Shown piece after piece: positions 14,661-64,000 of a stretch of 64,000 nt of DNA; position 1 is the stretch's first letter, and each line of letters begins with the position of its first letter. The stretch spans positions 62,001 to 126,000 of the forward strand of contig NW_027590274.1 of NCBI RefSeq assembly GCF_964213995.1, read 5' to 3'. Source of the stretch: Mustelus asterias. Its lineage: Eukaryota. The position numbers were made by a program, and so were the translations under genes. Under the pieces are notes generated by a model. It was given only the letters and a program-made list of their open reading frames with translations, searched no databases and was not told the DNA's origin.

Positions 14661-15384
14661 TATCTTCCCGGTTCTTTTGATTCAACCTTTAACTTCAATA
14701 CATTCATTTAACACAAATGCCCTCATTCTGAATTGAATATCTCTGAAATAGACAACATTGAATTGCAAGCATGGCTAATCAACAAAAGAGCGCGAGTCAC
14801 TGGGAAATACACATCCCATGGTACTTTTTTGAAATTGACCAAAGTCAGCTTTCAAACAAAAGCAAATATCTTTCAAGGGAAGAGATTTAAGAATGATCTG
14901 TTAGTTATACGTGATCCTTCTTTATTCGGTGTGTGAAACATTCTGGCACTTAAATATCTTTCATCGACCGGAGGCCCAGCAGTTCCGCACTGATTCTCGA
15001 TTTCCTCATCTGTCTGAGTGTTTTTTCCTATTTCTTTATTCGGAAGAACAATTTTAAAAATAAGCTTCGAAGCAATGTGTGCCATTTCCTCGAGTTCCGT
15101 TACAGTTTCACTTGTGTCTGTCTACCACGACTGGTAGACATGTTTCAGATGGTGATTAAGTCTGTTCGTCTGCACCGGTAAACGCATTAAATTTTGTTGC
15201 GGACTGAACGAGTAGCGAATATATGTACAAACAATACATACATTTATTTCCTGCCATTGCATCCTAAATAACAGCATTTCTGATTTTCCTAAAGGCAATT
15301 GAATTAATGTAAGGTCCGATTTTCCGAAAAGCATTTGAGTTGATGTAACATCGAGATTCACATAATGTTGAGCAATGATGGTGG

Positions 15385-15690
15385 CACAGTGGGACGGCAC
15401 AGTGGCACATTGGTTAGCACTGCGGCCTCACAGACACCTGAGTTCGATTCACGGCTTGGGTCACTGTCTGTGTTGCGTTTGCACGTTCTCTCCGTGTTCC
15501 CCGGGTCCTGGTTTCCTCCTACGGTCCAAAGATGTGCAGGTGAGGTGGATAGGCCATGCTAAATTGCCCCTTAGTGCCAGGGGGACGAGCTAGGTAAATA
15601 CATGGGGTTATGGGGATAGGGCCTGGGTGGGATTGTGTTCGGTGCAGTCTCGATGGGCCGAATGGCCTCCCTCTTCTCTGCATGATTCTA
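15385..15690 (+). mobile_element. HE1-like SINE with CR1-type tail
   Basis: GGCACAGTGG..TTAGCACTGC head, conserved core, GATGGGCCGAATGGCCTCC..GATTCTA tail. Confidence 0.85.
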
Positions 15691-15742
15691 GGAAGTTAAA
15701 CCATGCAGGCATCGCACTCCCTTCATAAGAATGGTCCAAAAG

Positions 15743-15820
15743 TGCTTCTAAAGTGCCGGGTTTTGATCCGGGAATCTTTTACGTGTGAGGCGAACGTGGT
15801 AACCATGACATTACACGAAC
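15743..15820 (-). pseudogene. tRNA-Val(CAC) pseudogene
   Basis: Reverse complement GGTTACCACGTTCGCCTCACACG..CCCGGATCAAAACCCGG matches the vertebrate Val consensus; stems degraded. Confidence 0.8.
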
Positions 15821-17016
15821 AGCTGACAGCATATTTTAGCTAATCGGCCTGTCTGCAATGTCCAACTGCGCTGCGCTGCTGCAGGTTCCAATGGTTAGAC
15901 TGAGAGCCCATGTCACTTAATTCAGGAAGAAAACCGGTATTTTCAACCTGATTTCTCAACTTATCTTGAACATCAAAATTTAAAAGCTTTCGTTTGGCAA
16001 ATATCTAAGTGAGCATTGATTTCTGCCCATTCATTAATGCAGCATTCTCATCTTCCTTCGAATAATCTCAACAAATTGTAATCAGTAATAAAAGTAAATT
16101 ACTGCGGATTCTGGAATCGGAAACCAAAAGAGAAAATGCTGGAAAATCTCGCAATGTCTGACAGCTCCTGTTAGGAGAGAAAAGGGCTGACCTTTCGAGT
16201 CCAGATGACATTTTGTGAAAGCTCATTGAGCAATTGTACTCAGTATTTTTTTTATTATTCACTATTTAGTATCAATGCATTATTTAACACATATGTCTTC
16301 ATTATGAATTGAATATTTCTGGAATTGAATATCACTGAATTGCAAACATAACTGACCAACAGAACGAAGCGAATCACCGGGTAATCACCGGGTAATACAG
16401 ATCGCAATTTTGAGATTGACAATCGCCAGCTTTTAAACAAATTCAACTACGTTTTAAATGGAAGTGATTCAAAAATTAAATGTTCGTGACACTTGAGCCT
16501 TTTTTATTATGGGCGTGAAATAGTCAGGCGCATAAATTCCGGCCATTTATAGGAAAGTCCAGAAGATCTGCACTGAGTCCCGATTCCTTCATCTGTCTGA
16601 GTGTCTTTTTTTCTATTTCTTTGTTGTGAACAACGATTTTAAAATGGAATCTTCTGGGAAATGAGCGCCATTTCCGATAGATCACTTACAATATCACTTG
16701 TGTCAGTCTTCTGGAGCACAAACTACTATTAGATATGTTTCAGACGGCGATTAGCCATGTCAGTCTGCACCTATAAACCCATTAAATTCTGTTGGAGACT
16801 GAACGAGATGCGAATATGTGCTCGATGTCAAAATCGAAACGTTTCTTTCCTGTCAGTGCATCAAAAAAAAATCAGCATTTCTTATTTTACAGAAAACATT
16901 GGAGGCCGATGTCAGAGCAACGATAATATGCCTGTAATATCGAGGTTCAGATAATGTTGAGGAACGAACTGAAATCATGCAATTTTCCTTCACCCGACAT
17001 GAGAAATCTTAATGAA

Positions 17017-17089
17017 TGTTTCTGCTTCGTTTGGAACCAGGATCCTTCCGCGTGTCAGACGAACATAATAACCACTACACTACAGAAAC
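17017..17089 (-). pseudogene. tRNA-Val pseudogene (anticodon position reads GAC)
   Basis: GTTTCTGTAGTGTAGTGGTTATTATGTTCGTCTGACACGCGGAAGGATCCTGGTTCCAAACGAAGCAGAAACA; T-stem broken. Confidence 0.82.
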
Positions 17090-17554
17090 AGCTGGACTCA
17101 AGCTGCAGCAAATCGGCCTGTCCGCAATGTTCAACTGCTGCAGGTTCCAATGGTTAGACTGAGAGCCCATGTCACTTAATTCAGGAAGATAACCGTTGCT
17201 TTCAATCTGATTGCTCAAATTATCTTGAACTTCAAAAGTTAAAAGCGTTCTTCTGGCAAATATCTAAGGGAACAATGATTTCTGGCCATTCATTAATGCA
17301 TCATTCTCATCTTCCTTCGACTAATCTCAACCAATTTTACTCAGCGATAAAAGCAAATTCCTGCGGATACTGGAATCGGAAACCAAACGAGAAAATGCTG
17401 GTAAATCTCAAAACGTCTGACAGCACCTGTAAGGAGAGAAATGAGCTGATGTTCGAATCCAGGTGACACTTTAACAAAGTTCATTGTACAATTGTACTCA
17501 GTATTTGTTTCAGTATTTAGTCTGAATGCATTATTTAACACATATGTCTTCATT

Positions 17555-20449
17555 ATGAATTGTATACCTCTGAAATTCAATATCATAGAATTGCTCCTCC
17601 CTCTGGGGGAGGATGACCTCACTGGGCCTGGAGGTCTGGAGTGCTTATACTTAAATGCAAGGAGCGTAGCAGGTAAGACAGATGAACTTAGGGCCTTAAT
17701 GCTCACGATGAATTTGGATGTGGTTGCGGTGACAGAGACTTGGTTGAAAGAGGTACAGGACTGGCAGCTGAATATTCCGGGGTACAAGTGTTTTAGGCGA
17801 GACAGAGGAGGGACCAAAAGAGGTGGGGGAGTAGCAGTATTAGTTGGAGAGCATATTACAGCGGTGCAGAGGGAGGACAATTCAGAGGGGTCGTGTAACG
17901 AGTCACTCTGGGTGGAGCTTAGAAACAGGAAGGGCGCAGTCACTATGTTGGGGGTGTACTACAGCAACCCCCCCCCCCCCCCCCCCCCCGCCAACAGCCC
18001 AAGGGAAGTGGAAGAACGGATATGTCAGGAAATACTGGATAGCTGCAGGAAAAATAGGGTTGTTGTAGTGGGAGACTTCAATTTCCCTGGTATAGACTGG
18101 AAATCGCTGAGATCAGGGACTCTGAATGAGGAGGAATTTGTAAAATGCGTACAGGAGGGTTCTTTGGAACAATATGTAGATAGCCCGACTAGAGAGGGGG
18201 CTATACTAGACCTCGTACTGGGGAATGAGCCCGGTCAGGTCTTCAAAGTTTCGGTAGGGGAACATGTGGCAAATAGTGACCACAATTCTGTTAGCTTTAG
18301 GATAGTGATGGAAAAGGATGAGTGGTGTCCCAAGGGTAAGGTGTTGGATTGGGGGAAGGCTAACTTTAGTGGGATTAGGCAGAAATTGGCAGCTCTTGAT
18401 TGGGAGAGGCTGTTTGAGGGTAAATCCACATCTGGCATGTGGGAGTCTTTTAAGGAACAGTTGTTAGGGCTACAGGACAGGCATGTGCCTGTTAAAAAGA
18501 AGAATAGGAAGGGTAGGATTCGAGAACCGTGGATAACCAGGGAAATTGAGGGACTGGTCAAAAAGAAAAGAGAGGCGTATGGTAGGTCCAGGCAGCTAAA
18601 AACGGAGGGAGCTCTGGAGGAGTACAAAGAAAGTAGGAAAGAACTCAAACGGGGAATTAGAAGAGCAAAAAGGGGTCACGAAATGTTCTTGGCAGACAGG
18701 ATTAAGGAGAATCCCAAGGCATTTTATTCATACGTTAGGAACAAAAGGGTTGTCAGGGAAAAAATCGGACCTCTCAGGGACAAAAGTGGGGAATTATACT
18801 TGGAGCCCAAAGAAGTAGGGGAGATCCTAAATGAATACTTTGCGTCGGTATTCACAAAGGAGAGGGATGTGTTGACTGGGAGTGTCTCGGAGGGGAGTGT
18901 TGAACCGTTGGAGAAAATCTCCATTACAAAGGAGGAAGTGTTAGGTTTGTTAGAGAATTTAAAGACTGACAAATCCCCAGGGCCTGATGGAATCTATCCA
19001 AGGCTGCTCAGGGAGACGAGAGATGAAATCGCTGGGCCTCTGACGCAAATTTTTGTCTCGTCACTGGACGCAGGTGAGGTCCCAGAGGATTGGAGGATAG
19101 CTAATGTGGTTCCGTTATTTAAGAAGGGTAGGACAGATAACCCGGGTAATTATAGGCCGGTGAGCTTGACGTCCGTGGTGGGGAAGTTGTTGGAGAAGAT
19201 TCTTAGAGATAGGATGTATGCGCATTTAGAAAGGAATAAACTCATTAACGATAGTCAGCATGGTTTTGTGAGAGGGAGGTCATGCCTCCCTAACCTGGTG
19301 GAGTTTTTTGAAGAAGTGACCAAAATGGTTGACGAAGGAAGGGCCATGGATGTCGTCTATATGGACTTTAGTAAAGCGTTTGACAAAGTCCCTCATGGTA
19401 GGCTGGTGAAAAAGGTTGGATCTCATGGGATAAAGGGGGAGGTGGCTAGATGGGTGGAGAACTGGCTTGGTCACAGAAGACAGAGAGTGGTAGTGGAAGG
19501 GTCTTTCTCCGGCTGGAGGCCTGTGACTAGTGGTGTTCCGCAGGGCTCTGTATTGGGACCTCTGCTGTTTGTGATTTATATAAATGATCTGGAAGAAGGT
19601 GTAACTGGGGTGATCAGTAAGTTTGCGGACGACACAAAATTGGCAGGACTTGCAGATAGTGAGGAGCATTGTCAGAAGCTACAGAAGGATATAGATAGGC
19701 TGGAAATTTGGGCAAAGAAATGGCAGATGGAGTTCGATCCTGATGAATGCGAAGTGATGCATTTTGGTAGAAATAATGTCGGGAGGAGCTATATGATAAA
19801 TGGCAGAACCATAAAGGGTGTAGATACGCAGAGGGACATGGGTGTGCAAGTCCACAGATCCTTGAAGGTGACGTCACAGGTGGAGAAGGCGGTGAAGAAG
19901 GCATATGGCATGCTTGCCTTTATAGGGCGGGGCATAGAGTATAAAAGTTGGGGTCTGATGTTGCAGATGTATAGAACGTTGGTTCAGCCGCATCTGGAAT
20001 ACTGCGTCCAGTTCTGGTCGCCACACTACCAGAAGGACGTGGAGGCTTTGGAGAGAGTACAGAGGAGGTTTACCAGGATGTTACCTGGTATGGAGGGGCT
20101 TAGTTATGAGGAGAGATTGGCTAAACTGGGGTTGTTCTCCCTGGAAAGACGGAGGATGAGGGGAGACTTAATAGAGGTGTATAAAATTATGAAAGGCATA
20201 GATAGGGTGAACGGTGGGAAGCTTTTCCCCAGGTCGGTGTTGACGTTCACGAGGGGTCATAGGTTCAAGGTGAAGGGAGGGAGGTTTAACGCAGATATCA
20301 GACGGACATATTTTACACAGAGGGTGGTGGGGGCCTGGAATGCGCTGCCAGGCAAGGTGGTGGAGGCGGACACACTGGGAACGTTTAAGACTTATCTAGA
20401 CAGCCATATGAACGGAGTGGGAATGGAGGGATACAAAAGAATGGTCTAG
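17555..20449 (+). CDS. CR1 ORF2: APE endonuclease + reverse transcriptase, uninterrupted
   Basis: YLNARS, VTETW, GDFN, SDH (EN); [25 protein letters not shown] (RT). No stop. The in-frame ATG at 17555 lies in host DNA. Confidence 0.85.
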   Translation: MNCIPLKFNIIELLLPLGEDDLTGPGGLECLYLNARSVAGKTDELRALMLTMNLDVVAVTETWLKEVQDWQLNIPGYKCFRRDRGGTKRGGGVAVLVGEHITAVQREDNSEGSCNESLWVELRNRKGAVTMLGVYYSNPPPPPPPANSPREVEERICQEILDSCRKNRVVVVGDFNFPGIDWKSLRSGTLNEEEFVKCVQEGSLEQYVDSPTREGAILDLVLGNEPGQVFKVSVGEHVANSDHNSVSFRIVMEKDEWCPKGKVLDWGKANFSGIRQKLAALDWERLFEGKSTSGMWESFKEQLLGLQDRHVPVKKKNRKGRIREPWITREIEGLVKKKREAYGRSRQLKTEGALEEYKESRKELKRGIRRAKRGHEMFLADRIKENPKAFYSYVRNKRVVREKIGPLRDKSGELYLEPKEVGEILNEYFASVFTKERDVLTGSVSEGSVEPLEKISITKEEVLGLLENLKTDKSPGPDGIYPRLLRETRDEIAGPLTQIFVSSLDAGEVPEDWRIANVVPLFKKGRTDNPGNYRPVSLTSVVGKLLEKILRDRMYAHLERNKLINDSQHGFVRGRSCLPNLVEFFEEVTKMVDEGRAMDVVYMDFSKAFDKVPHGRLVKKVGSHGIKGEVARWVENWLGHRRQRVVVEGSFSGWRPVTSGVPQGSVLGPLLFVIYINDLEEGVTGVISKFADDTKLAGLADSEEHCQKLQKDIDRLEIWAKKWQMEFDPDECEVMHFGRNNVGRSYMINGRTIKGVDTQRDMGVQVHRSLKVTSQVEKAVKKAYGMLAFIGRGIEYKSWGLMLQMYRTLVQPHLEYCVQFWSPHYQKDVEALERVQRRFTRMLPGMEGLSYEERLAKLGLFSLERRRMRGDLIEVYKIMKGIDRVNGGKLFPRSVLTFTRGHRFKVKGGRFNADIRRTYFTQRVVGAWNALPGKVVEADTLGTFKTYLDSHMNGVGMEGYKRMV

Positions 20450-20529
20450 TTTGGACCAGGGAGCGGCGCGGGCTTGGAGGGCCGAAGGGCCTGTTCCTGT
20501 GCTGTATTGTTCTTTGTTCTTTGTTCTTT
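17595..20529 (+). mobile_element. young 5'-truncated CR1 LINE with complete ORF2
   Basis: Inserted into an array unit between GAATTGC and ATAACTGA (AAAC lost, no TSD); (TTGTTCT)n tail. Confidence 0.96.
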
Positions 20530-21127
20530 ATAACTGATCAAAAGGAATCGAGTCACCGGGGAATACAGATCACAATTATGAGATTGACCATAGCGAACTA
20601 CATTTAACCAAAGTGAACTACATTTAAATAGACGAGATTGAAGAATTATCTGCTATTGACACTTGTGTCTTTTTTATTATGGGCGTGAAATATTCAGGCG
20701 CATAAATTCCAGCCATTTAAATGAAAGTCCAGTAGATCCGCACTAAATCTCGATTTCCTCATCTATCTGAGTGTTTTTTTTTTCCTATTTCTTTGTTTTG
20801 AAGAACGATTAAAGAAAAAGATTCTTCTGGGAAATGTGCGCCATTTCCGATAGTTCACTTGTGTTAGTCCCCTCGAGCACATACTACAATTCGAACAGTT
20901 CCAGATGGTGAATAGCTGCGTTCATCTGCACCCACAAACTCATTAAATTCTGTTGTTGATTGAACGTGATGCGAATATGTGCACAGTGTCGCAATCGAAA
21001 TGTTTCTTTCCTGTCATTTCGTCACAAAGCTATCAACATTCTTATTTTACAGAAAGCATTTGAGGCCGAGGTCAGAGCAAAGATCATATGGCTGCAATAT
21101 CAAGATTCGGATAACGTTCAGCAACGA

Positions 21128-21900
21128 AAGTCTAATACAGATAGGAAATATACAGTAAATGGCAGCACCCTTAAGAGTATTGATAGACAAAGGGATCTGG
21201 GTGTACAAGTACACAGGTCACTGAAAGTGGCAATGCAGGTGGAGAAGGTAGTCAAGAAGGCATACGGCATGGTTGCCTTCATCGGCCGGGGCATTGAGTT
21301 TAAAAATTGGCAAGTCATGTTGCAGCTTTATAGAACCTTATTTGGGCCGCACTTGGAATATCGTGTTGAATTCTGGTTACCACACAACCAGAAGGATGTG
21401 GAGCTTTGGAGAGGGTACATAAAAGATTTGCCAGGATGTTGCGTGGTATGGAGAGGATTAGCTACGAAGTGAGATTGCAGAAACTTGGTTTGTTCTCACG
21501 AGAGCGACGAAGGTTGAGGGGCGCCCTGATAGAAGTCTACAAGATTATGAGAGGCATGGACAGAGTGGATAGTCAGAAGCTTTTTCCTCGGGTGGAAGAG
21601 TCAATTACTGGGGGACATAGGTTTACAATGCGAGGGGCAAGGTTTAAAGGAGATGTACAAGGCAGACTTTTTAAACAGGGATTAGTGGGTGCCTGGGACT
21701 TGTTGCCAGGGGAGGTAGTGCAAGCGAATACGGTAGTGACTTTTAAGGGGCGCCTTGACAAGTACATGAATAGGAATGGGAATAGAGGGATATGGTCCCC
21801 GGAAAGGTCGGGGGTTTTGGTTAATTCGGGCAGCATGGTCGGTACAGACATGGAGGGCCGAAGGGCCTGTTCCTGTGCTGTAATGTTCTTTGTTCTTTGT
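21128..21900 (+). mobile_element. CR1 3' fragment inserted in an array unit
   Basis: RT C-terminal ORF pieces and TTCTTTG tail; host AGCAACGA|ACTGAAATC is split. Confidence 0.93.
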
Positions 21901-21949
21901 ACTGAAATCATACAGATTTTCCTCAATCTAAATTAGGAAGCTCAATAAA

Positions 21950-21985
21950 TGTTTCTGCCAGGTTTTGAACCTGGAACCTTTCGCC
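21950..21985 (-). pseudogene. truncated tRNA-Val 3' half
   Basis: TGTTTCTGCCAGGTTTTGAACCTGGAACCTTTCGC at the homologous array position. Confidence 0.65.
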
Positions 21986-23186
21986 TCTCTGCAATGTTCA
22001 ACTGCGCTGTATTGCTGCAGTTTCAAATGATTAGACTGAGAGCCCATGTCACTTGTTTCAGGAAGATAACCGTTACTTTCAATGTGATTGCTCAACTTAT
22101 CTTGAACTTCAAAATTTGAAAGCGATCGCCTGGCAAATATCTAAGGGATCAATGATTTCTGCTCATTCACTAATGCATCATATTCATCTTCCTTCGAATA
22201 ATCTCAACCACTTGTGCTCATTAATAAAAGCAAATTACTGGGGATGATGGATTCTGAAAGCAGAGGAGAAAATGCTGGAAAATCTCACATGGTCTGGCAG
22301 CATATGTAAGGAGAGAAAGGAGCTGACGTTTCGAGTCCAGATGACACTTTGTCAAAGCTCATTGTACAATTGTACTCAGTATTTGTTTCAATATTTAGTG
22401 TCAATGCATGATTTAACACATATGTCTGAATATCTCTGAACTTGAATATCACTGAATTGCAAACGTAACTGGCCAACGAAAAGAGTCGAGTCACCGGGTA
22501 ATACAGATCCCATGGTGTTTGTTTGAGATTGGCCATCATCAGCTTTTAAACAAAGTCAACTATAATTAAATGGAAGAGATTGAAGAATTATCTGTTAGGT
22601 ATACTTGAGTCTTTTTTATTATAAGTGTGAAACACTCAGGCGCATAAATTCCAGCCATCTATAGGAAAGATTAGTTGATCCGCACTGAGTCTCCATTTCC
22701 TCATCTGTCTGAGTGTTTTTTTTCCGATTTCCATGTGATAAAGCAAGATTTTTAAAAAAAGATTCTTCTGGGAAATTTGCACCATTTCCCCTAGTTCCCC
22801 TAGTTCCCCTAGACTTCTATCAGGTCGCCCCTCAACCTCCGTCGTTCTAGTTCACTTAGAGTATTACTTGTGTCTGTCTTTTTGAGCACACACTCCCATT
22901 AGACATGTTTCAGATGGTGATTCGCTATTTTAGTTTGCACCTATGAACCCATTAAATTCTGTTGTCCACTGAACAAGATGATACTATGTGCAGGTTGTCA
23001 AAGTAGAGACGTTTCTTTCCTGCCATTGCGTCAAAAAAAATCAGCATTTCTTATTCGCAGAAAGCATTTGAGGTTGAGGTCAGAGGAAAGATAATATTGC
23101 TGTAATAACGAGATTCGGATAATGTTCAGCAACGAACTGAAATCATACAGGATTTCCCTCATCTTACATGAGCAAGCTTAACGAAT

Positions 23187-23255
23187 GCTGTTTCCCCGTT
23201 TCGGACCGGGGACTTTTCGTGTTTTAGGAGAACGGGATAACCACTCCACTGCAGC
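23187..23255 (-). pseudogene. tRNA-Val pseudogene
   Basis: GTTTCGGACCGGGGACTTTTCGTG..GATAACCACTCCACTGC at the homologous array position. Confidence 0.7.
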
Positions 23256-24781
23256 TAGCATTGGGGCCTCAATGGCCCTGACTGCAATGTTTAACTCCAC
23301 TTTGTTGCTGCAGGTTTGAATGGTATGATTGAGGGCCCATGTCACTTAATACAAGAGCACAGCCCTTACTTTCAACCTGATATCTCAACTTATCTTGTTC
23401 TTCAAAATTAAAAATAGTTCGTCCGGCAAATATCTAAGGAAGCACTGATTTCTGCTCAATTATTAATGCGTTATTCTTAGCTTCCTGCGAATAATTTCAA
23501 CCAATTGTACTCAGTATCTGTTTCATAGAATCATAGATTCAGTGCAGAAACGGCCAATCGGCCCAACGAATCAGCAGCGACGCCAGAGTATCATAACCAG
23601 GCCATTTCCCCTGCTGTCCCCACAACGCTACTCTTTTCCCATGGCTAATCAATCTAACCGAGGGGCAATTTAGCATGCCCAATCCACCTTGGATCATCAT
23701 TCAATTTTTAATATCAATACAGTTATTTAATATATACGTCCAAATTCTGAATTTAATATCTCTGGAACAATATCTCTGGAATATGCAATTGGTCTGACTG
23801 CATTGTTCAACTCCGCTCTATTGCTGCAGGTTCGAATGGTTAGGCTGAGAGGCCATGTACCTCAGTGCAAGAAGGCAACCGTTACTTTCAACGTGATGTC
23901 TCAACTTGTCTCGAATTTCAAAATTTAAAAGCATTCATCGGACAAATGTCTAAGGGAACAATGATTTCTGCTCAATCGTGAATGCGTCATTCTCATATAC
24001 CATCGATTAACTTCAACCAGTTATATCCAGTATTTGTTCGGTAATCAACATTTACTATCAATCCAGTTATTTAACACATTGCGAATTGAATATGTCTGAA
24101 ATATACAACATTGAATTGCAAACATTACTGACCAACAAAATAAATCGAGTCACGGGTAATACACATCGAATGGTGCTTTTTTAAGTAAGTTTGACCATGA
24201 TCAGCTTTTAAACCAAATCAAATATATTTAAAGGGAAGAGATTCAAGAATGATCTGTCAGTTATACTTGATCCCTCTTTATTCTGTGTGAGAAACATTCT
24301 GGCGCCTAAATCTCGTTCATCTATAGGAGATCCAGAAGGTCCGCTTTGTTTCTTGATTTCCTCTTCTGTCTGAGAGGTTTTCCCTATTTCGTTAGTATGA
24401 AGAAAAATTTTAAAAAGATGCTTCGGGGAAATGTTCTCCATTTTCTCTACTTCAGTTACAGTATCACTTGTATCTGTATTTTTGAGCGCCCAATACTATT
24501 AGACATGTTTCAGTTGATGATGAAGTATGTTAGTCTGCATCTATAAACCTATTAAATTCTGGCGTGGACTGAAAATATTGCTAATATGTGCACGGTTTTA
24601 AAATAGGAACATTTCCTCTCATTGCGTCATGAAAATACAAGGTTTCTGATTTTGCTGAAAGCTTTTGAGGCAGAGGTGAGCGCAAATATAACATGGCTGT
24701 AACATCGAGTTTCGGATAATGTTCAGCTACAATCTGAAATTATACAGACTTCCCTCAACCTTAATGAACAAATTTCATTAA

Positions 24782-24853
24782 TGCTTCTGCTCGATTTCGA
24801 ACGTGGGCCCTTGCGTGCGTGAAGCAAATGCAACCAGCACGACACCACAGAAA
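24782..24853 (-). pseudogene. tRNA-Val pseudogene (highly diverged)
   Basis: TGCTTCTGCTCGATTTCGAAC..CACCACAGAAAC at the homologous array position. Confidence 0.62.
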
Positions 24854-26065
24854 CTGTTGGCTGCTCCGTAGCCCAATGGGGCTGAGTTGATATGTTGCAA
24901 TATTCGTTGGGAATGCTGGAGACACATTAATCTAAGAATGATTGAAAATGGTTAACAATGTCACAGATCGATGAGAGGCTCATCAATCCATCAGATATTT
25001 GCGAATTATTTTATGAGGAGCTAAATAATTAAGATGTCGTTGCGGGATTGATGGGCCGATGGGCCTGTTCCTGTCCTGAACTGTTCTTTGTTCCAATTTC
25101 AATTTCCTCCTCTCATTCCATGAAGTTGATGTTTCTCCCTTTTAAGTCATTGAAAAATCCCAATTTGAAGAAGGAGTTTCTGCGGAATCCATGGACAATT
25201 TGCTATAACAACCTTTCCCTTACCCAATGGCAGCAAGTATTGGATTTAGCTTCCTGATATAGTTTTCAACGTAAACATATATTTATTTTTGCAATTGATT
25301 TTATATCGATTTTACAAAACGAATTTAAATCTGATGAAGCATCTCCTCATTATTTCTGAATTATACCTAATATAACTACATTTACTCCACAACCTTCCAC
25401 AGAGTGTGGAATATAACAGACGAGAATAAATCACCTACACCTGAAGCAGTCTTCTTGTGCTGTCCTCCTGTGTCCTGAACATCCAATCCGAAAACCTCGA
25501 GAATGGATGGAGAATCTGTCTTATTCACACGGACTTCACATAGGCCAACACAGTGGCACAGTGGTTAGCACTGCTGTTTCACAACGCTAGGGACCCGGGT
25601 TCAATTGAAATTCCTCCTTAGTGTACACGAATAGGCGGCGGAATGTGGCGACGAGAGGATTTTCACAGTAACTTGAATTATTAATTGCAGTATTAATGTA
25701 AGCCTGGTTGTGACACGAGTAAATATGTTTTGCACACGGACACATCCAGAATATGTTTGGCGTAAAAATAAATATATCCATTATTGCTTATTCTGCAAAA
25801 GGGTCCACGTCGATTTGTCAATCAATGATCACCATTGATGAGAAATAGATTTCTGGCTGCTCCTGTTGTTAAAATGTTGTGTTCCATCGTAATGAGTATC
25901 TAACACGATATTGCCGCACTTACACCACACCAGGGAATTCCAGTTCAGGAAGTTTACTCTGGAGCTAGCACGCTTTTTACGTTGCCAATGAGTTCATGTC
26001 TCTTTTGTGTGTCAATGGCTGTGCCAATCTGCTTGGTTATCTTTCTTAGTGATTGTCCGTGTGTC

Positions 26066-27532: not shown

Positions 27533-28004
27533 ATGGGGGTGAAACTCTGTCTCACTCTGGTTATTGTCCTGATTACAGGTCTGTCATTTTGAACTTCTGC
27601 GTGAAATCTGCCAGTCACCACATTCATTCCCCATTTCCATCTGGAGGGGATTATTCCATTGTTGTTACTCCTTCTAACCCACTGCGTGTCTGTTATCTAT
27701 TTTCAGACATGAGTAACGGTGACTCAGTGTCCCAGTCAGGACCAGGTGTTGAAGCAGCAGAGGGTGAAGATTCAGCAATACCCTGCAGTTACTCGGGACA
27801 GAGTTTAACTGTACAACATTACTGTTCTGGTATCGCCAGTATACACACCGAGCTCCTCATTGACTGCTCAGAGCCGCGAATGTACGGGTCTCAAGGTTTT
27901 TTACATTGCAGCGGGAATCTCAACCTGAAACAAAGCACTTTTCACTTGCCCATGAAAGATTTGAAGGTGACAGACAACACCGAGAATTACTGTGCACTGA
28001 GAGC
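27533..28004 (+). pseudogene. TCR alpha/delta V segment; leader 27533-27578, V exon 27707-28004; WYRQ motif out of frame
   Basis: Leader MGVKLCLTLVIVLIT with GT-AG intron; GDSVSQ..PCSY..DNTENYCALR; TGG TAT CGC CAG lies in a shifted frame. Confidence 0.88.
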
Positions 28005-28043
28005 CACAGTGAATGAGGCTCCCGCGGGCCTCATACAAAATCT
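28005..28043 (+). other. 23-RSS
   Basis: CACAGTG + 23 nt + ACAAAATCT. Confidence 0.92.
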
Positions 28044-28575: not shown

Positions 28576-28665
28576 GGCTCGTTGGTCTAGGGGTATGATT
28601 CTCGCTTAGGGTACCTCGCCCCATTAGCATGCGAGAGGTCCCGGGTTCAAATCCCGGACGAGCCC
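28576..28665 (+). tRNA. tRNA-Pro-AGG: tRNA-Pro(AGG) with an 18-nt intron (28612-28629) at position 37/38
   Basis: Exons match the canonical vertebrate Pro-AGG sequence; TTTT terminator 2 nt downstream. Confidence 0.93.
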
Positions 28666-46589: not shown

Positions 46590-46631
46590 GGGAACATGGG
46601 CGCCACTTGCAAATCGTCACCAACCGCATTT

Positions 46632-46703: not shown

Positions 46704-46744
46704 TGTTTTTCTTTGCCAATTCTGATGATTGATTTGCTAGATGA

Positions 46745-47991: not shown

Positions 47992-48794
47992 AGGAACAGA
48001 GCCGCCAGATGCAAATGGTCACTCAAAGTATGTGACCTCCTTCATTCAATGTGGGAGGAACAACAAGTGGATCAATTGCTTTGAGCGACCATTTGAAGCC
48101 GACTGATCTGTTGTCGGTTTTCTGGTCTAACTGTGAGCACTCTGGATCCAGCGAACCAGGTTTAAGTTTAGTTGGATCCTTGCTCTTCTTTCCCATTGCT
48201 GAGGATTAGTTTGTGAAACGACCTTTTATTTAAATTTCTCATGAAGTAGGAATCTGGAGGACAGTTTGTCAGCCAGTTTAACTTCTCTTACATTGCACAT
48301 TGCTGAGCCTCTGGGGACAGATGCCTGCAACAACAATGTTTTGTTTCCATCTTTTCGCGACATACACAATTGTTTCCTTTTCTTCATGTTGAGCTCCTGT
48401 TTTCTCTTTTTGGTGTCTGTTACAGTTGTACATATATTGGGCAGCTCAGAGCACACGTGCTCTGTTCTCAATATGAAAATCAATTGTTATGTTCCCTTCT
48501 GTGAACTTTAAAAAAACGTTTCTGTAAAATGTTCTCTGAATTTTTAAAGTAAATCTTGAATAAAAAATGAATAAATCATCACTTTGCCAAACTCCTTTCC
48601 CCATCAGGCAAAATGGATATCCATCCTTGTGTTCAATCTGCGCTTCAAACCAAATCTCTCAGAGTAAAATATAATTCTCTTCCCCACTGCACGAGGCACG
48701 CTTTCCAAGTATAAGGATCTCCCACACCACAACACAGTCCTGTGCAATCTCTCAGGGAGAAGTGGAACATTGAGGCTCATAATTCGAACAAATG

Positions 48795-49981: not shown

Positions 49982-50436
49982 ATGCGGCTGCTCAGCATCT
50001 GGGTTGTGTGGGGAATATTTCTGGCAGGTAAATGTGGATGCGTTCTTCCATTCCCCAAGCTTGATTGGAATCAAATTTCAACCAGCCACCGGTCTATACT
50101 TTTCCTGATTAATTTATTATATTCCAGATCTGAGTCATGGAGATTCTGTCACTCAGCCGCTGCCCTCAGATGTTAAGGCAGAAGGAGCAGCGCTCATATT
50201 CACCTGTAACTATGAAACTACACAGAGAAACTATGCATTACACTGGTACCGCCAACTCCCAGGAAACCATCCCGAGTTTATAGTGTGGAGAAGTACATAC
50301 AACAGTGAAGATAAAGCAGATTTTGCCAAAAGCCGTTTCTCTATCGAGCTTCATACATCGACTAAATTCACCAGTTTAACTGTTTCGGATCTGCAGCTGA
50401 CTGATGTCGCCGTGTATTACTGCGCTTTACAGCTAT
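49982..50436 (+). CDS. intact TCR alpha/delta V segment; leader exon 49982-50027, V exon 50128-50436
   Basis: MRLLSIWVVWGIFLA|DLSHGDSVTQPLPSDVKAEGAALIFTCNYETTQRNYALHWYRQLPGNHPEFIVWRSTYNSEDKADFAKSRFSIELHTSTKFTSLTVSDLQLTDVAVYYCALQL; phase-1 GT-AG intron; both Cys and the Trp are present. Confidence 0.95.
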
Positions 50437-50475
50437 CACAGTGATGGAAAGCTGTCTCACCCCTGCACAAAAACT
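50437..50475 (+). other. 23-RSS, near consensus
   Basis: CACAGTG + 23 nt + ACAAAAACT. Confidence 0.95.
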
Positions 50476-52359
50476 GCCTTTGGATTGTTGGTGCGAGCTC
50501 TGTTCTGTTGAGCGTTAAGTAGGAGTGCGGTTGTTGCAGTGCAGCGGCGCTCACAGGCGCTCAGATACACACCGAGAGGAAACCAAATTAACCCCGGATC
50601 AAACTGTCACCCAACAGTTAGCAGGAGAGACTGAGAAAATGAAATGCAGAACTGCAGTGGAACAGAGAAACATCACATAATCATAACTGAAGCCACCCGT
50701 TATAATCCCCGCCCTCAATGATCCGACGTCCTGTGTGAGCTGGATGTCAGTGAAAGGAAACACCTCGATCTGTGCTGCAGCCAATGTCCTGGTGGGAGAC
50801 AGCGTTCTGCTGTGTGGGTTGGTTTGTTAATGATCATCAGAAAAACAATAGTTAAAGGAAAAGGGGAAACAAGATTAGCCTCAGGAGACACCCTGAAGCA
50901 CAAGCAGCTCATTCTCAATTCTCAGTTACTACTTTGTGGAACAAGTTGGTTGCAGATACGCTGTTTCTGATCCAGTAACACGCACTGATTAAATATAGCT
51001 CTGAACAGACCAGTTGTAAGCTGCTGGAGAGTGAGGGAGGAGATGATAAATGGTTGTTTCATAGGCGGGCAGGTGGGGAACGGGTAGTAAAGGAGACAAA
51101 AAGCACATTAAAATATCATGAGCGCATTTATGACGTTTAACTTCTGTATAAAGGCGACTTGTAATCAACTAATGTAATAAGTCCACTGGTGGCCATGTGA
51201 ACATACAAATTCGGAGCTGGAGTAGGCAACCGTGCCACCTCGAGACTGCCCGACATTTGATAAGATCCTGGCGGATTGAATTGTGACATCTCTATTTCCA
51301 TGTCTCCCCTGTACACTCTGACTCCCTGGTCATTCAATAATCGACCTCACCCCGTCCTAATTGTTTTCAATGAACTTGCCACCACTGATTTCTGGGGAAG
51401 GGGATATCACAGACCAAATAACATCATGGTGACAAAAAGGCATAATCTCATCATTTCTGAGGGGACCTTGAGGAGTTTATTAACATTATCTCCCAAGTTT
51501 TTGTCCCTGTCACAAAGGAAACATCCTTTTAGTTTGGAATTAACCTCTGCACATTCTATACTGACCCAGCGATGATAACGGAAAAACCGTATAATTCCAG
51601 GAATGAATGATACGGATTTTTTCTGTTTTATTCAAATAGGTTATGTATTTTTAAAATATCTTTAACACTATGCTATATTACTCTGCACACAACTGGCCTT
51701 GACAGGCCGGAAGGAGATTTATTGGAATGGTATTTGTGATCAGGGAGCTCTCCAAATTTGGTCAGCTCAAACAGTGTAAAACTGATAGCAATTCCGCACC
51801 ACTCGAGGTCACTGGGGGACGAGACACCAAAACTTTCTCCAAAACAAACCATTTTAAAATTAATTTGACCGAGTGTGGGATTCGTTGCTGAGTCCACAAT
51901 TTATTGTATTCCCTAATTGCTTTTCAAATGGTGGTGATGATGTTGGGGCTGCCCTCTTCCAGGCCAGCTGATATCAAGAAAACCAAACTCAGCTGTGAGT
52001 TCAAACTGCAGTTTCACTATCTTGCGATTAAACTATTACAATATCACCATCTGGTGGTGACTTGCACTTACGGCAGGCGCTGGCCTCTGTGAGTCTCGGG
52101 GAAGTTCAGGCACTGGATGGCTGGAACTGGCATCCGGTTGATGAAGTGCCAATATGGAATAAGATTGTTCATTCCCTTTTGCAAACTTTCATTCCTAAAT
52201 TGGAATGGAAGTTTGCAACATGTGCTCGGGTGGTGCATTCGCCTATTTGTCACCAGGCACTGTATAAGAATTTTGTGACCCATTCCCCATGGGAGATATT
52301 GTCTGGAGTTGCAGTTCGGGATTATTGTGTACATTAATATTTAAAATAAATATTATTGA

Positions 52360-52542
52360 AGATATATGGCACGGGAGATACGTTTCAAGATCTACCGGAC
52401 AGATGTTCTTGCTGTTTTGCGCAAAGGAAATAAAACTGTTCTTTTTGATGTTGCCGGGATGCTTCTCTCTGACACCGCCGTGTATCACTGTGCCACGGAG
52501 CCCACACTGCTGCAGAGATAGAGCGGATCCCAGACAATAACC
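52360..52542 (+). pseudogene. 3' fragment of a V segment with RSS (52503-52542)
   Basis: ..LAVLRKGNKTVLFDVAGMLLSDTAVYHCATE, then CACACTG + 24 nt + ACAATAACC; 5' half absent. Confidence 0.75.
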
Positions 52543-53357: not shown

Positions 53358-53396
53358 AGTTTTTGTGCAGCAGTCAGACTGCTTTCCATCACTGTG
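53358..53396 (-). other. 23-RSS
   Basis: CACAGTG + 23 nt + ACAAAAACT. Confidence 0.94.
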
Positions 53397-53854
53397 AGTT
53401 TCAGCGAGAGCGCAGTAGTACAAGGCAGTGTCAGTCAGCTGCAGACCCGAGATGGTCAAACTGGTGAATTTACTCGATGCCTGAAGTTCTCCAGAGAAGC
53501 GGCTTTCAGCAAAATCTGCTACATCTTCACCAAACAATGAGTTCTTCCCCACTGTAACACAGGGTGTTGCCGGTACCAGTGTAAATTGTAGTTGCTCATT
53601 GTAGTATCAAAGGTACAGTTTAAAGTCACCGTTTCTCCTACTGTCTGTTATTCTGAGGACAGCGACTGAGTAACAGAATCTCCATGACCCAGATCTGAAA
53701 AACATGTTCGAACGAAAACAGATCAGAACAACTGAATACGTAAAATTCAGTTCAAAAACAAATTTGTAAAATTAAAGTAGATATGAAATGCGTTTGGTCC
53801 ATAATTACCTGTCAGGAATGTTCCCCGCACAATCCAGAAGCTGAGTAGCAGCAT
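53397..53854 (-). pseudogene. TCR V pseudogene, same family as 49982; leader 53854-53809, V exon 53694-53397
   Basis: MLLLSFWIVRGTFLT|DLGHGDSVTQSLSSE*; frameshift after WYRQHP; ends DTALYYCAL. Confidence 0.92.
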
Positions 53855-54419: not shown

Positions 54420-54702
54420 GGGGTGACTGGAGCAGATGAGGTGATGCAGCTTCCTCGGTGGAAATGTTGTGAGTGAAGGGGGATCCGTATCCATGAACTG
54501 CACCACGACCACTACATTTAGCAACGCATATTGGTACAGACAGTCCCCGAATCAGCCACCCCAGTATCTGGTGATGGCCAGAACAGAAACCGATTAACGC
54601 GAGAGGATCACTGCCTCAATCGGCGGAGGCAGCAAATTCAGCGCCCTGACTGTGAGAGACGCCAAAGTTACAGACACTGCCACCTATCTCTGCGCCGTGA
54701 GC
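54420..54702 (+). pseudogene. TCR V-alpha-like pseudogene exon
   Basis: ADEVMQ / VSEGGSVSMNCT..AYWYRQSPNQPPQYL..D*..DAKVTDTATYLCAVS; frameshift, in-frame TAA, no clear acceptor. Confidence 0.9.
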
Positions 54703-54741
54703 CACAGTGTGACAAACATAGGGTGAGCCCATACAAAAACA
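54703..54741 (+). other. 23-RSS
   Basis: CACAGTG + 23 nt + ACAAAAACA. Confidence 0.93.
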
Positions 54742-59224: not shown

Positions 59225-59262
59225 CAGTTTTGTACAGGTTCAGCCCAGCTGTGAGTTCTGTG
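59225..59262 (-). other. degenerate 23-type RSS
   Basis: CACAGAA + 22 nt + ACAAAACTG. Confidence 0.75.
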
Positions 59263-60030
59263 GGTCTCAGTGCGCAGTAATACACCACGGAGTCTGCCAG
59301 CTCTGTTTTAGACACCTTCAGCTCCGCAGAAAAACGGCACTCTGAAGATCTGTCTGTGTTCCCGGTGTATTTATTTGTCTGCACTAGATACTCCATGGAC
59401 CCGCTGGGATACTGACGGTACCAGAATAGATAAATGTGGTTGCTTGACGTTGTATAATTACAGAACAACCTAACATCATCTCCTTCAGTGACGGTGACTG
59501 CAGCCGGTGGCTGTGTAACAGAATCTTCTCGGGAATGTCCTGTAAGGGTACAAATAAATATTAACTTACACAATGCGACTTGTCTGTTTCCGCCCAGAAT
59601 CTGCCCGCCATGTTGAACAACAAAGTCATAAAGTCACGACAGTGCAGAAGGAGGCCATTCGACTTATCGAGTCTGCACTGACAACAATCTTACGGAGGCC
59701 CTATCCCCGTACCTCCACATATTTACCCTGCTAATCCATCTAACCTACGTATCCCAGGGCACAAAGGGTCTCAAACTCTCAAACTTAGCATGGCCAATGC
59801 AACTAACCAGCACATCTTTGGAATGGGAGGAAACCAGAGCACCCGGAGGAAACTCACGCAGACACGGGAAGAACGTGCAAACTCCACACAGACAGTGACC
59901 TAAACCGTGAATCGAACCCAGTTTCCTGGAGCTGTGAGGAAGCAATGCTAACCACTGTGTCACCGTACCGCCCACAATAATAACCTCAAAGACAAATCAG
60001 ACAACTGAACGGAAATATATTTTTCACAGT
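59263..60030 (-). pseudogene. TCR V pseudogene, paralog of 34251-34723; V exon 59539-59263 with a 27-nt FR3 deletion; SINE in the intron; leader defective
   Basis: EDSVTQPPAAVTVTEGDDVRLFCNY..LFWYRQYP..RFSAEL^KVSKTELADSVVYYCALR. Confidence 0.88.
59630..59975 (-). mobile_element. HE1-like SINE inside the V intron
   Basis: Full head, core and tail in reverse; absent from the paralog intron at 34555-34690. Confidence 0.88.
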
Positions 60031-61229: not shown

Positions 61230-61296
61230 TTCCGAAACCGCAATCTCTAACAACTGTGGTGATTGCGCCAAATCCTAATCACTGGACTACCAGGAA
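61230..61296 (-). pseudogene. tRNA-Glu relic
   Basis: GGTGATTGCGCCAAATCCTAATCACTGGACTACCAGGAA resembles the reverse complement of the Glu 5' half. Confidence 0.6.
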
Positions 61297-62058
61297 ACTG
61301 CCTCCAAGGTTTTTAATCTAAACTACGCATGCTAACTTGGCGCTTTGCTTCTATTCCAACATTTACTTTTTGTACACCAGGGACAAGTCTGTCTGACAAG
61401 TGCCCCTTCATATGAACACATTTACTGCGGATGCTGGAATCTGAAACAAGAACAGAAAATGCTGGAAAATCTTAACAGGTCTGAAAGCACCTGCGAAGAG
61501 AGAATAGACTGAACGTTCACTGTCTGGATGACCCTTCGTTAGAGCTGAAGACAAATAAATTTGGACGAGATTTATACTGTAATGCTGAGGGATATGGGTG
61601 TTGGGTGGATGACCAAGGTGTCACATACAAATAAATAAAAAACAAAGGGAATTAATCATGGCTACGATGGCAGCCCATTTAGAGATCAGAATGTGTAAAT
61701 GGCAGGGCAAAGAATATGTAAGAGATGGCCCGAGTGGGGTGGAGGGAGAGGGGGCAACAAGATCGAAAGTGAGATTTTAAATAAACAATGCAAAACATGG
61801 AAATTAATATATATAAGCAATATAAAATAATAAAAATATATAAATAAGATGAAATTTAACAAAACAAAATACATGGAAATGGGGTGAAGATGGAGGAGAG
61901 ATGTTCTGAAGTTGTTGAGCTGGGGATCCACACAGATTTTAGATGGCGATCTAATCCAGTGTGATCTAATCCAACTCCATTGATTCTGTTCACTGCCAAT
62001 ACCGGCTTGATAGCAATGACTTCTGCTGGTGGCATTGATGGGAAGTCGAAGACACTAA

Positions 62059-63334
62059 GATGCATGGAATGAAGCTTGTGTTCCTTTACATCTGCAAGAA
62101 ACAGGAAAAGTGTTTTTGTTAATATGTCGAATGATGCAGAGGATGAAATGAAAATGGGGACTGGGACAGCGTTGAGAGAGAGTAAGATGGTATTGCTGGA
62201 GACAGATGTCGAGTGTCTTCGTGTGGTGGCGCATGGAATAGCTTGTGTTCCTTTATGTCTGCAAAAAACAGGAAAGGTTTTTTGTTAAGACCGTCGAATG
62301 ATGTGTATGATGATGCCACCACCAAACACATCTGCCCTTCACTCCTTCTGTCAACATTCCACAGAGACCGTTCCCTCTGGGATAACCTGGTCCACTCTTC
62401 CACTATTCGGAACACCTCCCCCGTCACCTTCCATTGCTGTTGCAGAAGGTGTCACATCTGTCCATTTACCTATTCTATGCTCACCACCCGAAGTCCAAAA
62501 CATACATTCCAGGTTAAGCAGCGTTTCACTTGCACCTCTTTCAATTTGGTGTATTGTATTTGCTGCTCCCAATGTGGTCTCCTCTATATCAGAGTGGGTG
62601 ATTGCTTTGCTGAGCACTTTCTTTATGTGCGCAATCAGGATTCTGACTTTCTGGTTCCTTTCCACTTTAACATACGATCCTGCTCTCATGCCCACATGTC
62701 TATCCTTAGCTTGGTGCAATGTTCCAGTGAAGCTCAACGCAAATTGGAGGAACAGCATCTCATCTTCTGGCAAGGCACTTTACAGCTTTCCGGTCTCAAC
62801 ATCGAATTCAACAACTTCAGATAATTTGCTCTACCCCATCTCGTCCCCCTTTGTTTTCACTCTATTTTATTTAATTTTTTACTGTTCTCTAACTTTTATT
62901 TCTTTATTGTCTTTCTTCATTTTTCTTCCTACTGTCCCCCTACTTCATCCCCCTCCCCTTATCTTCTTCCCCCCCCCCACCACTTCCCCTTTTCAACATT
63001 CTACCTCTGTCCCATCCCACCGATCACCCCGCCACCACAGCCGCCCCCCCCCCCCCGCCCCCCCAACATTTTCATCTGATACAGCTTGCAGCTTCTCTGC
63101 CATTTAGCCATCTACACCCTTTATTCTCTCTGTGGATAGCTATTAGCAGTATTTACCCCTGGTTTCTATAGCTATGACTCATCCTTCGTTCCCATCCCCC
63201 TGCAGCATAAATATCTCCCATTTTGTATGCATTTTACCTTTGACAAAGGGTCATCTGGAATCGAAACGTCAGCTCTTTTCTCTCCTTACAGATGCTGCCA
63301 GACCTGCTAAGATTTTCCAGCGTTTTATCTTTTG
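62059..63334 (+). mobile_element. Penelope-like retroelement fragment (GIY-YIG endonuclease region and 3' repeat) with a 14-bp TSD
   Basis: CxxC..FTCTSFNLVYCICCSQCGLLYI..FAEH..HFN..EQHLIF..GLN; flanked by GTCGAAGACACTAA (62045-62058) and GTCGAAGGCACTAA (63335-63348). Confidence 0.85.
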
Positions 63335-63601
63335 GTCGAAGGCACTAAATTTAGGATAGCGATATTTGTAGAGGAGTGGATCAAATCCCTCCACTGTCAG
63401 ATTTTCACTTATATTACTATAAACGTTGTGAACATCTTTGGTCAAAGATGTGATTCCTAAAATTAAATGCAGTAGAATGCATCATCATTCATTTTGATTA
63501 GAGGAACCAGCAGATAGAATGTAAAGTGAGCAACTGACCGGCTTGTCGAATGAGCGTGGTTGCTCCACCAGTAAGCTGAAACTACTCCATGCACATGGAC
63601 T

Positions 63602-63674
63602 GTTTCTGTCGTGTAGTGGTTAGCACGTTTGCTCCACACGCTGAAAATCCACCTTTCGAGACCAGCCAGGAGCG
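63602..63674 (+). pseudogene. tRNA-Val(CAC) pseudogene, paralog of 41771
   Basis: GTTTCTGTCGTGTAGTGGTTAGCACGTTTGCTCCACACGC.. Confidence 0.72.
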
Positions 63675-64000
63675 TTTCCAACCGGTTTTATTTCAAATTG
63701 ATTCAAATTTCGGAACTATCTCGTTTCTCACGAAACATTAATTAAGCTGTTGAGTTCCTGCGGCATTGAAGACGGGAATCACTCAATAATTAGATTAAAA
63801 GGGAAAGTTTGTGATGAAGAGCATAACAGAATGGATTGACTGACACAAGGAATGATGGACCAGGTGAACATTGGTTGGTTCTCATTATTTTTAAACTTTG
63901 CTGCTTTCCTGGATGAACTCCAGCTCTCCATTCCTCGGCAGTAAGTAACCATTCGACTGGAGACTGGCAATTATTGAGCAAGAGTGTGTATGTGTGTGTG

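Follow-up and report, generated by a model that had tools for sequence, protein, structure and literature searches.

V segments and tRNA-like elements

The window analyzed here is a 64-kb stretch from Mustelus asterias. [quoted passage not shown] It also contains 28 tRNA-like elements at a threshold of at least 11 bits, or 25 at a threshold of at least 14 bits. The features are listed in Table 1.

Table 1. Features of the window
Feature	Position	Strand	Description
Old tandem array	14672..24860	-	1.2-1.6 kb units, 68-83% identical
V1	27533..28043	+	TCR alpha/delta-type V pseudogene with leader, intron and V exon; its RSS23 is at 28005
tRNA-Pro(AGG)	28576..28665	+	Perfect cloverleaf; 18-nt intron 28612-28629 at position 37/38
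Decayed tRNA-Pro copy	30716..30796	+	21 bits
Arg-like tRNA relic	31554..31625	-	Picked by eye; presumed Arg
V2	34212..34546	-	Doubtful; open V exon, CYC in place of YYC, one mismatch in heptamer
tRNA-Ile(TAT)	37270..37365	-	Intron-bearing; two mismatches in acceptor stem
tRNA-Asn(GTT)	38309..38382	+	One mismatch in T-stem
tRNA-Glu(CTC)	39748..39819	+	Perfect cloverleaf
Five-relic group	41771..44004		Val 41771+; Glu-like 42063+, 42323+, 43948-; Ser 42803+
Gln tandem cluster	44418..48178		One perfect tRNA-Gln(CTG), 44419-44490, plus nine decayed copies derived from Gln; both strands
V3	49982..50475	+	Intact TCR alpha/delta V with leader, GT-AG intron and Cys/Trp/Cys; RSS23 close to consensus at 50437
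V4	52330..52542	+	V 3' relic; degenerate RSS with 24-nt spacer; 5' limit approximate
V5	53358..53854	-	V3-family pseudogene: stop and frameshift, RSS23
V6	54445..54741	+	V pseudogene with in-frame stop, RSS23
V7	59225..59531	-	V2-family copy: internal deletion, degenerate RSS (22-nt spacer), SINE upstream
Glu relic	61250..61296	-	Relic library search
Val relic	63605..63664	+	Relic library search

All seven V/RSS units of the initial annotation were recovered, six by a strict RSS scan and V7 with its degenerate RSS. The RSS spacer is 23 nt in V1, V2, V3, V5 and V6. A leader, an intron and a V exon with Cys23, Trp41 and Cys104 are complete in V3 alone, and V1 and V4-V7 are broken. The frame of V1 is open through two offsetting frameshifts, but the invariant Trp is gone. 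A leader exon of V2 was looked for and none was identified. V2 and V3 share 60% and 49% identity, respectively, with J- and C-containing shark gene models labelled 'TCR alpha chain', in agreement with the TCR identity proposed initially. In a search of the PDB with the V profile, the top matches were multi-V antibody constructs; the chains with a single V that passed 1e-25 were seven of TCR-alpha and one of an antibody light chain. V3 alone as the query retrieved multi-domain antibodies. Judged from the sequences, the V segments appear to be closest to TRAV/TRDV and not to Ig V. The three contig sets aligned to V3 contain no V-(D)-J joint, and they are uninformative on the predicted expression of V3.

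The 28 tRNA-like elements derive from eight isotypes (Val, Pro, Arg-like, Ile, Asn, Glu, Ser and Gln), and 23 of them are relics. The initial count of about 30 tRNA genes and relics is thus close, whereas the proposed ten or so isotypes are reduced to eight and most of the elements are dead. ARAGORN with introns accepts eight tRNAs in the window, and Rfam accepts seven. Fully paired stems were found only in Pro-AGG, Glu-CTC and Gln-CTG, and the Asn and Ile genes carry stem mismatches. The downstream T-runs are located at +3 (T4) for Pro-AGG, at +45 for Gln-CTG and at +86 for Glu-CTC. By sequence criteria, these three are predicted to be functional tRNA genes. A Tyr identity at 37270 was rejected, and the gene is Ile-TAT with an intron. 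MFE folding yielded no cloverleafs and was not used to judge the tRNAs, and ARAGORN at a lowered threshold produced spurious calls with long introns. The relic library lacks several isotypes. Three of its queries (Val 17017, Val 41771 and Arg-like 31554) are themselves excerpts of the window, so that their matches there are given by construction.

The old tandem array has a decayed tRNA-Val in most of its units (at 15758, 17017, 21949, 23196 and 24782), and it is broken up by a LINE at about 17.6-20.5 kb. The units of the Gln cluster are 70-79% identical to one another. Ten more matches in the window are SINE heads, which were excluded from the 28; true SINE heads are present in all samples. 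The 28 elements differ from tRNA-derived SINEs, as they have kb-scale flanks in common with their paralogs and are absent from the background. Retroposition as the main source of the window tRNAs was rejected because the kb-scale flanks are co-duplicated. At the DNA level, this co-duplication bears out the earlier claim that the tRNA units were amplified.

Along the window, the order is five Val relics, V1, three tRNA elements, V2, 18 tRNA elements, V3-V7 and two relics. The 13-kb gap between 48.2 and 61.2 kb is free of tRNA elements and contains V3-V7. The tRNAs are therefore arranged in blocks and do not alternate with the V segments; the kb-scale alternation described in the initial annotation was not confirmed, and a regular alternation was rejected. 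The tRNA genes run on for about 32 kb beyond the window end.

A tRNA compartment in the antigen-receptor complex

On C71 (20.4 Mb), V matches extend from 6.5 to 17.4 Mb and fall on either strand. C71 also bears a VH-D-D-J cassette and the CH1-4 exons of IgM together with a secretory tail. Nine J-alpha segments lie within 10 kb at 18.40 Mb, and C-alpha was located at 18.42 Mb using a shark C-alpha domain query; Pfam PF09291 missed it, in a search in which no positive control responded. C71 thus carries both IgH miniclusters and the V, J and C of TCR alpha/delta in linkage. A VH is located 29 kb before the window on the same contig, which is unplaced relative to J-alpha. The window belongs to the known elasmobranch antigen-receptor complex, with its IgM miniclusters, scattered V segments and J-alpha/C-alpha. 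The content of the window given initially is mostly real, but the IgM miniclusters and the multi-megabase V field were overlooked. In the description of this complex (AgRC; Flajnik et al., 2025, PMC12227049), IgH miniclusters are likewise in linkage with TCR alpha/delta, and V exons of the TCR type lie between the IgH clusters. In contrast, the term 'tRNA' has no occurrence in the text and supplement files of that work that were searched, and neither tRNA islands nor V and tRNA duplicons appear there.

The density of tRNA-like elements in the window is 390/Mb. None was detected in 340 kb of controls (220 kb of large chromosomes and 120 kb at Ig-C1 clusters on C13/C8), giving a 95% upper bound of 8.8/Mb. 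One background sampling covered 14 stretches. Reversed-sequence controls also contained none, and none was present in 80 kb of IgM stretches on C71. Compared with the genome background, the window is thus enriched, in line with the dense cluster described initially. A genome-wide RF00005 search scored 63 candidates, a figure that is not a genome total. Of the exact-match sites, 33/45 for Pro-AGG, 19/34 for Glu-CTC and 44/56 for one Gln isodecoder are on contigs bearing V or C1. Some stretches that lack V segments contain tRNA islands as well. The shark antigen-receptor complex doubles as an isotype-specific tRNA compartment. No description of such a compartment within an antigen-receptor complex was found in the literature searched, which bears on the doubt in the initial annotation as to whether the arrangement had been described. 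With the tRNA islands, the recently defined shark complex gains a component that had been missing, and for several tRNA isodecoders a large part of the exact-match copies is inside it. Housekeeping Pol III genes therefore lie in DNA for which deletion, inversion and hypermutation are expected in lymphocytes.

Shared duplications of V segments and tRNA genes

Blocks of V segments and tRNAs share duplications that are 88-99.8% identical. The window from 11.7 to 64 kb is 99.2-99.8% identical to C91, the part from 6.9 to 40.9 kb has a second copy 101 kb away on the same contig, and the part from 40.6 to 64 kb is 93-97% identical to C71 at 16.47 Mb. Nine V3 copies of at least 94% identity are present on nine contigs, and three V3 copies are 100% identical. 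Some of the copies of at least 99% identity on unplaced contigs may be alleles.

The V1-Pro cassette, of which there are at least 34 distinct copies, pairs a V pseudogene with an intact tRNA-Pro(AGG) that bears an intron and lies 0.6 kb away. Six cassettes, 88-99.7% alike, are distributed over 8 Mb of C71, and two of them are inverted copies 5.6 Mb apart. One of the eight stretches compared for cassettes (C71, 16.42 Mb) has no colinear chain and no V. V1 is broken in 24/24 readable cassettes, the other 10/34 being unscored. Within the Pro gene, the sequence diversity is 0.021 for exon 2 and 0.189 for the intron, and the flanks show 0.05-0.12; this apparent conservation is inflated, as the cassettes were picked by similarity or exact exon 1, and gene conversion could mimic it.

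Could these copies mostly reflect assembly redundancy, with haplotigs inflating a tRNA cluster that is small and only borders on the V field? Many copies are on unplaced contigs, and the window-C91 identity (up to 99.8%) and the identical V3 copies are in keeping with this. Against it, V3 copies diverged down to 94% occur on nine contigs, a tandem pair of copies is present within a single contig, and C71 by itself carries six diverged V1-Pro cassettes. We regard this explanation as very improbable.

According to the initial annotation, tRNA genes may promote the duplications. As recombination hot spots, by fork pausing or dispersed homology, they would drive V birth and death. Each tandem unit holds a tRNA, one deletion end is inside the Arg-like relic, and another end is 105 bp from a Pro relic. 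In a survey of the six C71 cassettes and of 200-kb stretches of C91 and C71, however, only 2/10 duplication or indel ends were within 110 bp of a tRNA relic and 0/10 were at an intact gene, against an expected 12% from the share of sequence; this is no excess that ten points could show. The other 8/10 ends are at least 337 bp from any tRNA-like element and correspond to LINE fragments, a G-run or the V1 RSS (repeat labels assigned by eye). The survey thus speaks against the claim, and a hot-spot role of the tRNA genes seems quite unlikely.

We consider it probable that the tRNA islands among the TCR alpha/delta V segments and IgM miniclusters were copied together with them in multi-kb duplications, as passengers of a shared unstable region, and that they do not control V(D)J recombination. 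The Val and Gln arrays were produced by old tandem duplication. Mosaic duplications of more recent date, in part inverted, scattered V and tRNA blocks across megabases, and most copies of both gene classes then decayed by birth-and-death. The duplications may arise by unequal crossing-over at LINE fragments and simple repeats, and a minority of the tRNA copies may be held functional by selection. Such selection would explain why dead V1 was multiplied beside a tRNA-Pro that stayed intact.

The tRNA-Pro(AGG) introns have TSEN-type features. All 36 distinct intron-bearing Pro loci keep the purine at -3 and the 32-35 pairing over 15 intron sequences, which include an unrelated 14-nt intron on C85. 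The introns are at position 37/38, and base 32 pairs with the third-last intron base. Pro introns are present in fungi. The family is predicted to be spliced, and it expands an isotype outside the usual intron-bearing tRNAs of vertebrates. In two reports, Tyr-GUA, Ile-UAU and Leu-CAA, plus human Arg-UCU, are named as widespread intron-bearing tRNAs, and the TSEN-spliced introns have the same 37/38 site and a conserved anticodon-intron base pair (PMC10485636; bioRxiv 10.1101/2025.06.17.660180). The shark introns differ from these in the isotype, Pro(AGG), and in forming a large vertebrate family. No such vertebrate family was found in the literature searched; Fig. 3A of Squalomix (bioRxiv 10.1101/2025.06.08.657570), which gives intron-bearing isotypes in the figure only, may already list Pro introns. 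The Squalomix text searched describes many shark tRNA loci, many of them intron-bearing, clustered on few chromosomes beside another expanding family. That family, in contrast, is the histone genes (red stingray chromosome 28), and 'TCR' and 'immunoglobulin' have no occurrence in the same text, which also notes that the tRNAs at human 6p22 co-occur with histones.

Position of tRNA genes relative to V segments

tDNA and TFIIIC have insulator activity. It had been proposed that the tDNAs shape V accessibility: active tDNAs, bound by TFIIIC together with cohesin or condensin, would serve as boundaries or as anchors of loops, aiding the opening and the RAG capture of distant V segments. The locus does present an unusual long-range problem, with V segments that lie among IgM miniclusters, on either strand, at distances of up to 12 Mb from J-alpha, and the exact-match sites above place many intact tRNA genes inside it. 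In 10-kb bins, which are non-independent and partly chosen, tRNA-like elements are present in 8/19 with V versus 6/41 without V (Fisher p=0.046). However, 12/12 V-centred 10-kb stretches on C71 (120 kb) contain no Rfam tRNA gene, and 7/12 also lack relics. The relic density is 83/Mb in V-centred stretches versus the C71 average of 90/Mb (p=1.0), and thus a V-specific tRNA excess is absent on C71. Most sampled V segments have no good tRNA within about 5 kb. V3, the sole clearly intact V, is 5.9 kb from the nearest good tRNA, and the V nearest to a good tRNA is the dead V1. Both the Ig-C1 clusters and the C71 IgM stretches lack tRNAs, and tRNA islands exist where V is absent. A regulatory role of tRNAs in V rearrangement is unsupported by these positional proxies, which are mostly negative, and this explanation of the islands is rather improbable.

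In human, a tRNA cluster at 14q11.2 is near TRA/TRD and outside the V array, and 6p22 has an extended-MHC cluster of tRNA, histone and ZNF genes. The resemblance to the shark complex is that tRNA genes are near immune multigene loci and ZNF clusters. The 14q11.2 cluster includes Pro-AGG, Pro-TGG, Leu-AAG and Thr-TGT, and all four are present in the shark complex. The human cluster lies outside the V array, whereas the shark tRNAs lie between V segments. It is conceivable, but unlikely, that in the ancestor of jawed vertebrates the antigen-receptor chromosome doubled as a tRNA compartment, that the human 14q11.2 Pro/Leu/Thr cluster is its remnant, and that the Pol III-bound genes of sharks, including the locus-resident spliced tRNA-Pro(AGG) family, organise or help to amplify a V field that occupies both strands among the IgM miniclusters over more than 10 Mb. 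The overlap gives a synteny test for the origin of the 14q11.2 cluster, and the shark locus lends itself naturally to the question of whether long-range V(D)J recombination is affected by tDNAs; if the overlap is merely passive, its value is descriptive. Dead V copies carried with tRNA genes can also inflate counts of shark V segments.

V segments and tRNA elements of the window

According to a strict RSS scan, six V-associated RSSs are present in the window (C242:62001–126000), and V7 carries a seventh, degenerate one, in agreement with the seven V/RSS units of the initial annotation. Four V segments are on the plus strand and three on the minus strand. V3 is intact, and its nearest proteins are those of sharks and a chimaera. 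The V exon of V2 is open, with no leader identified, and V1 and V4–V7 are broken.

Seven tRNAs were detected by ARAGORN (bacterial mode) and seven by Rfam, and a tRNA-Pro(AGG) was gained by permitting introns. The first, intron-less typing of one further element was rejected, as it became Ile-TAT once introns were permitted. Using nhmmer with a library of tRNAs of this same genome, 28 tRNA-like elements were detected, apart from 10 SINE heads (tRNA-like starts of SINEs); the reversed sequence gave none. Among the window tRNAs, the stems are perfect in three and nearly intact in two. Both classes (7 V, 28 tRNA-like) thus share the window as annotated, but the alternation is not found; the arrangement is blockwise, and a tRNA-free stretch holds five of the seven V segments.

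Coordinates of the features (C, contigs of this genome; L, individual stretches read from it)
Feature	Position	Observation
V1 pseudogene	window 27533–28043	RSS, splice sites and leader all intact
tRNA-Pro(AGG)	window 28576–28665	
Ile-TAT element	window 37270	
tRNA-free stretch	window 48.2–61.2 kb	
Two LINE pieces	window 55083–57635	head-to-head inverted; 949-bp segment 94.7% identical
Three RSS23 matches	L121:7369–7491	at 61-bp spacing, following a relic of one V
J-alpha cluster (L161)	C71:18.40–18.41 Mb	nine J-alpha, their repeated units nearly identical; strict scan gave no RSS
C-alpha	C71:18.42 Mb	
Two divergent V segments (L168)	C71:19.45 Mb	one with RSS23; ~1 Mb downstream of C-alpha, same orientation
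Second C-alpha-like exon (L176)	C546:240 kb	identity to the query 43% vs 41%; either an allele or a paralog
Lys-TTT/Thr tRNA tandem array (L001–L004, L009–L030)	C16:97.2–98.65 Mb	period ~1.8 kb; 53 exact Lys sites; anticodons mutated in some Thr copies
Lone intron-bearing Pro copy (L128)	G000:C24:20987215	~95 bp common with the cassette, then a SINE head
V1 replaced (L149)	C112:856.9k	
V1 replaced (L154)	C138:910.0k	

The locus and its tRNA density

Among the best 150 of 1773 candidates in this 3.68-Gb genome, V3 relatives are located on C71, where they span 6.5–17.4 Mb in either orientation, and on a further 63 contigs. C71 also carries the J-alpha cluster, C-alpha (with a second match on C546), ZNF clusters and C1-set exons. 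The two C1-set sites read both consist of IgM heavy-chain exons; at one of them a secretory tail is present, and a VH-D-D-J cassette lies close by. On the window's own contig, a VH is located 29 kb upstream. The locus matches the elasmobranch antigen-receptor complex, in which TCR-type V exons lie between IgH clusters (Flajnik et al., 2025, PMC12227049).

At ≥14 bits, the window contains 25 elements (390/Mb), whereas none is present in twenty-two 10-kb stretches of large chromosomes or in twelve at Ig-C1 clusters on C13 and C8 (background upper bound 8.8/Mb). An even sample of C71 contains 18 in 200 kb (90/Mb). These results indicate that the window is a tRNA-dense island on a chromosome that is itself enriched in tRNAs, and the annotated tRNA density stands well above the genome background. 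Exact-match sites, using queries from the window itself, are located on contigs bearing V or C1-set matches (C1 identity read on C71 only) in 19/34 cases for Glu-CTC, 33/45 for Pro-AGG, 44/56 for Gln and 10/13 for Asn. For the control Lys-TTT, with a query from elsewhere, 0 of 60 sites are on such contigs and 54 are on C16. Thus, the complex is one of several isotype-specific tRNA compartments.

Human 14q11.2 carries Pro-AGG, Pro-TGG, Leu-AAG and Thr-TGT tRNAs. The same four isotypes are found in the shark complex, and thus an ancient linkage is possible.

An earlier report (bioRxiv 10.1101/2025.06.08.657570) describes clusters of shark tRNAs together with histone genes. The accessible parts of Flajnik et al. 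(2025) and PMC10751288 never mention tRNA, and in that of PMC8450103 the topic comes up solely through tRNA-derived repeats of elephant shark. A literature search, mostly of papers free of subscription, found no report of a TCR V field that contains tRNA genes, and none of a vertebrate Pro-AGG intron family. The tRNA-within-V-field arrangement is real, apparently undescribed and probably passive.

Duplication history and a possible role of tRNA genes

The Val units are 68–83% and the Gln units 70–79% identical within the window, kb flanks included; both are old tandem duplicates. C91 matches 52 kb of the window at 99.2–99.8%, and a 34-kb part recurs on C91, 101 kb away. On C71, the window's left part has a 99.3% match at 13.21 Mb and its right third a 93–97% match at 16.47 Mb. 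The duplicated blocks form a mosaic with V segments and tRNAs inside. The proposed amplification of the tRNA units is seen at the DNA level, both in the Val/Gln tandem duplicates and in the multi-kb V and tRNA blocks on C91 and C71; that assembly redundancy produces this picture is very improbable. Co-residence and co-duplication of V segments and tRNA islands is the best reading, and we consider it likely. In this reading, tRNA islands and ZNF genes reside alongside IgM clusters and V segments on a recombination-prone multigene chromosome; blocks would be copied by unequal crossing-over, and most copies would then die.

Alternatively, tDNA boundaries might assist long-range V capture. A relic is present in 8 of 19 V-containing bins against 6 of 41 others (p = 0.046, bins non-independent). 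However, twelve V-centred 10-kb stretches on C71, with 29 V-like matches, contain 10 tRNA relics, or 83/Mb against the C71 average of 90/Mb (p = 1.0). In the twelve, Rfam detected no tRNA at its cut-off, and the seven lacking relics stayed empty even at E ≤ 10; ARAGORN detected three decayed Arg-ACG genes. The suggestion that tDNAs shape V accessibility thus finds no support here, and boundary-assisted capture is unlikely.

It is similarly doubtful that tDNAs are breakpoint hot spots promoting the duplications, as had also been suggested. Ten duplication/indel ends were mapped at 26–41 kb of the window. One falls inside a relic, a second lies 105 bp from one, and the other eight are at least 337 bp away; 2/10 within 110 bp compares with 12% expected by sequence share.

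The V1-Pro cassette

Joint duplication is most evident in the V1-Pro cassette, where V1 and the tRNA-Pro(AGG) are 0.6 kb apart. Of 45 Pro-AGG sites, 30 were read (L125–L154). The intron is present in 27, of which 25 have flanks in common with the window; the three loci without it are all on large chromosomes. The 45 loci yield 34 distinct cassettes; among these, exon 2 shows a diversity of 0.021, compared with 0.189 for the intron and 0.05–0.12 for the flanks, a contrast inflated by cassette ascertainment. V1 is broken in 24/24 readable cassettes. Together with the low exon diversity, this indicates that a dead V was multiplied beside a tRNA mostly kept intact; decayed Pro copies also exist. 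Anticodon-intron pairing, needed by TSEN according to PMC10485636, is kept in 36/36 distinct intron-bearing Pro loci, and splicing is predicted.

L135, a locus on C85, has a different 14-nt Pro-AGG intron with full pairing kept. An intron is also present in a decayed Pro-TGG-like copy on C91 and C71. L128, which lies on a large chromosome, has the appearance of a retrocopied pre-tRNA.

Two frameshifts that offset each other leave the reading frame open between the start of the V exon and the RSS in 10 of the 24 V1 copies that were read. The core of the open-frame copies (window V1; L031–L035, L037–L040, L042) is scrambled, without Trp41. In L149 and L154, unrelated DNA replaces V1 up to the equivalent of window 27999; the replacement ends 6 nt before an intact RSS23, just 3′ of a heptamer-like site embedded in the end of V, and is possibly a germline RAG-type event.
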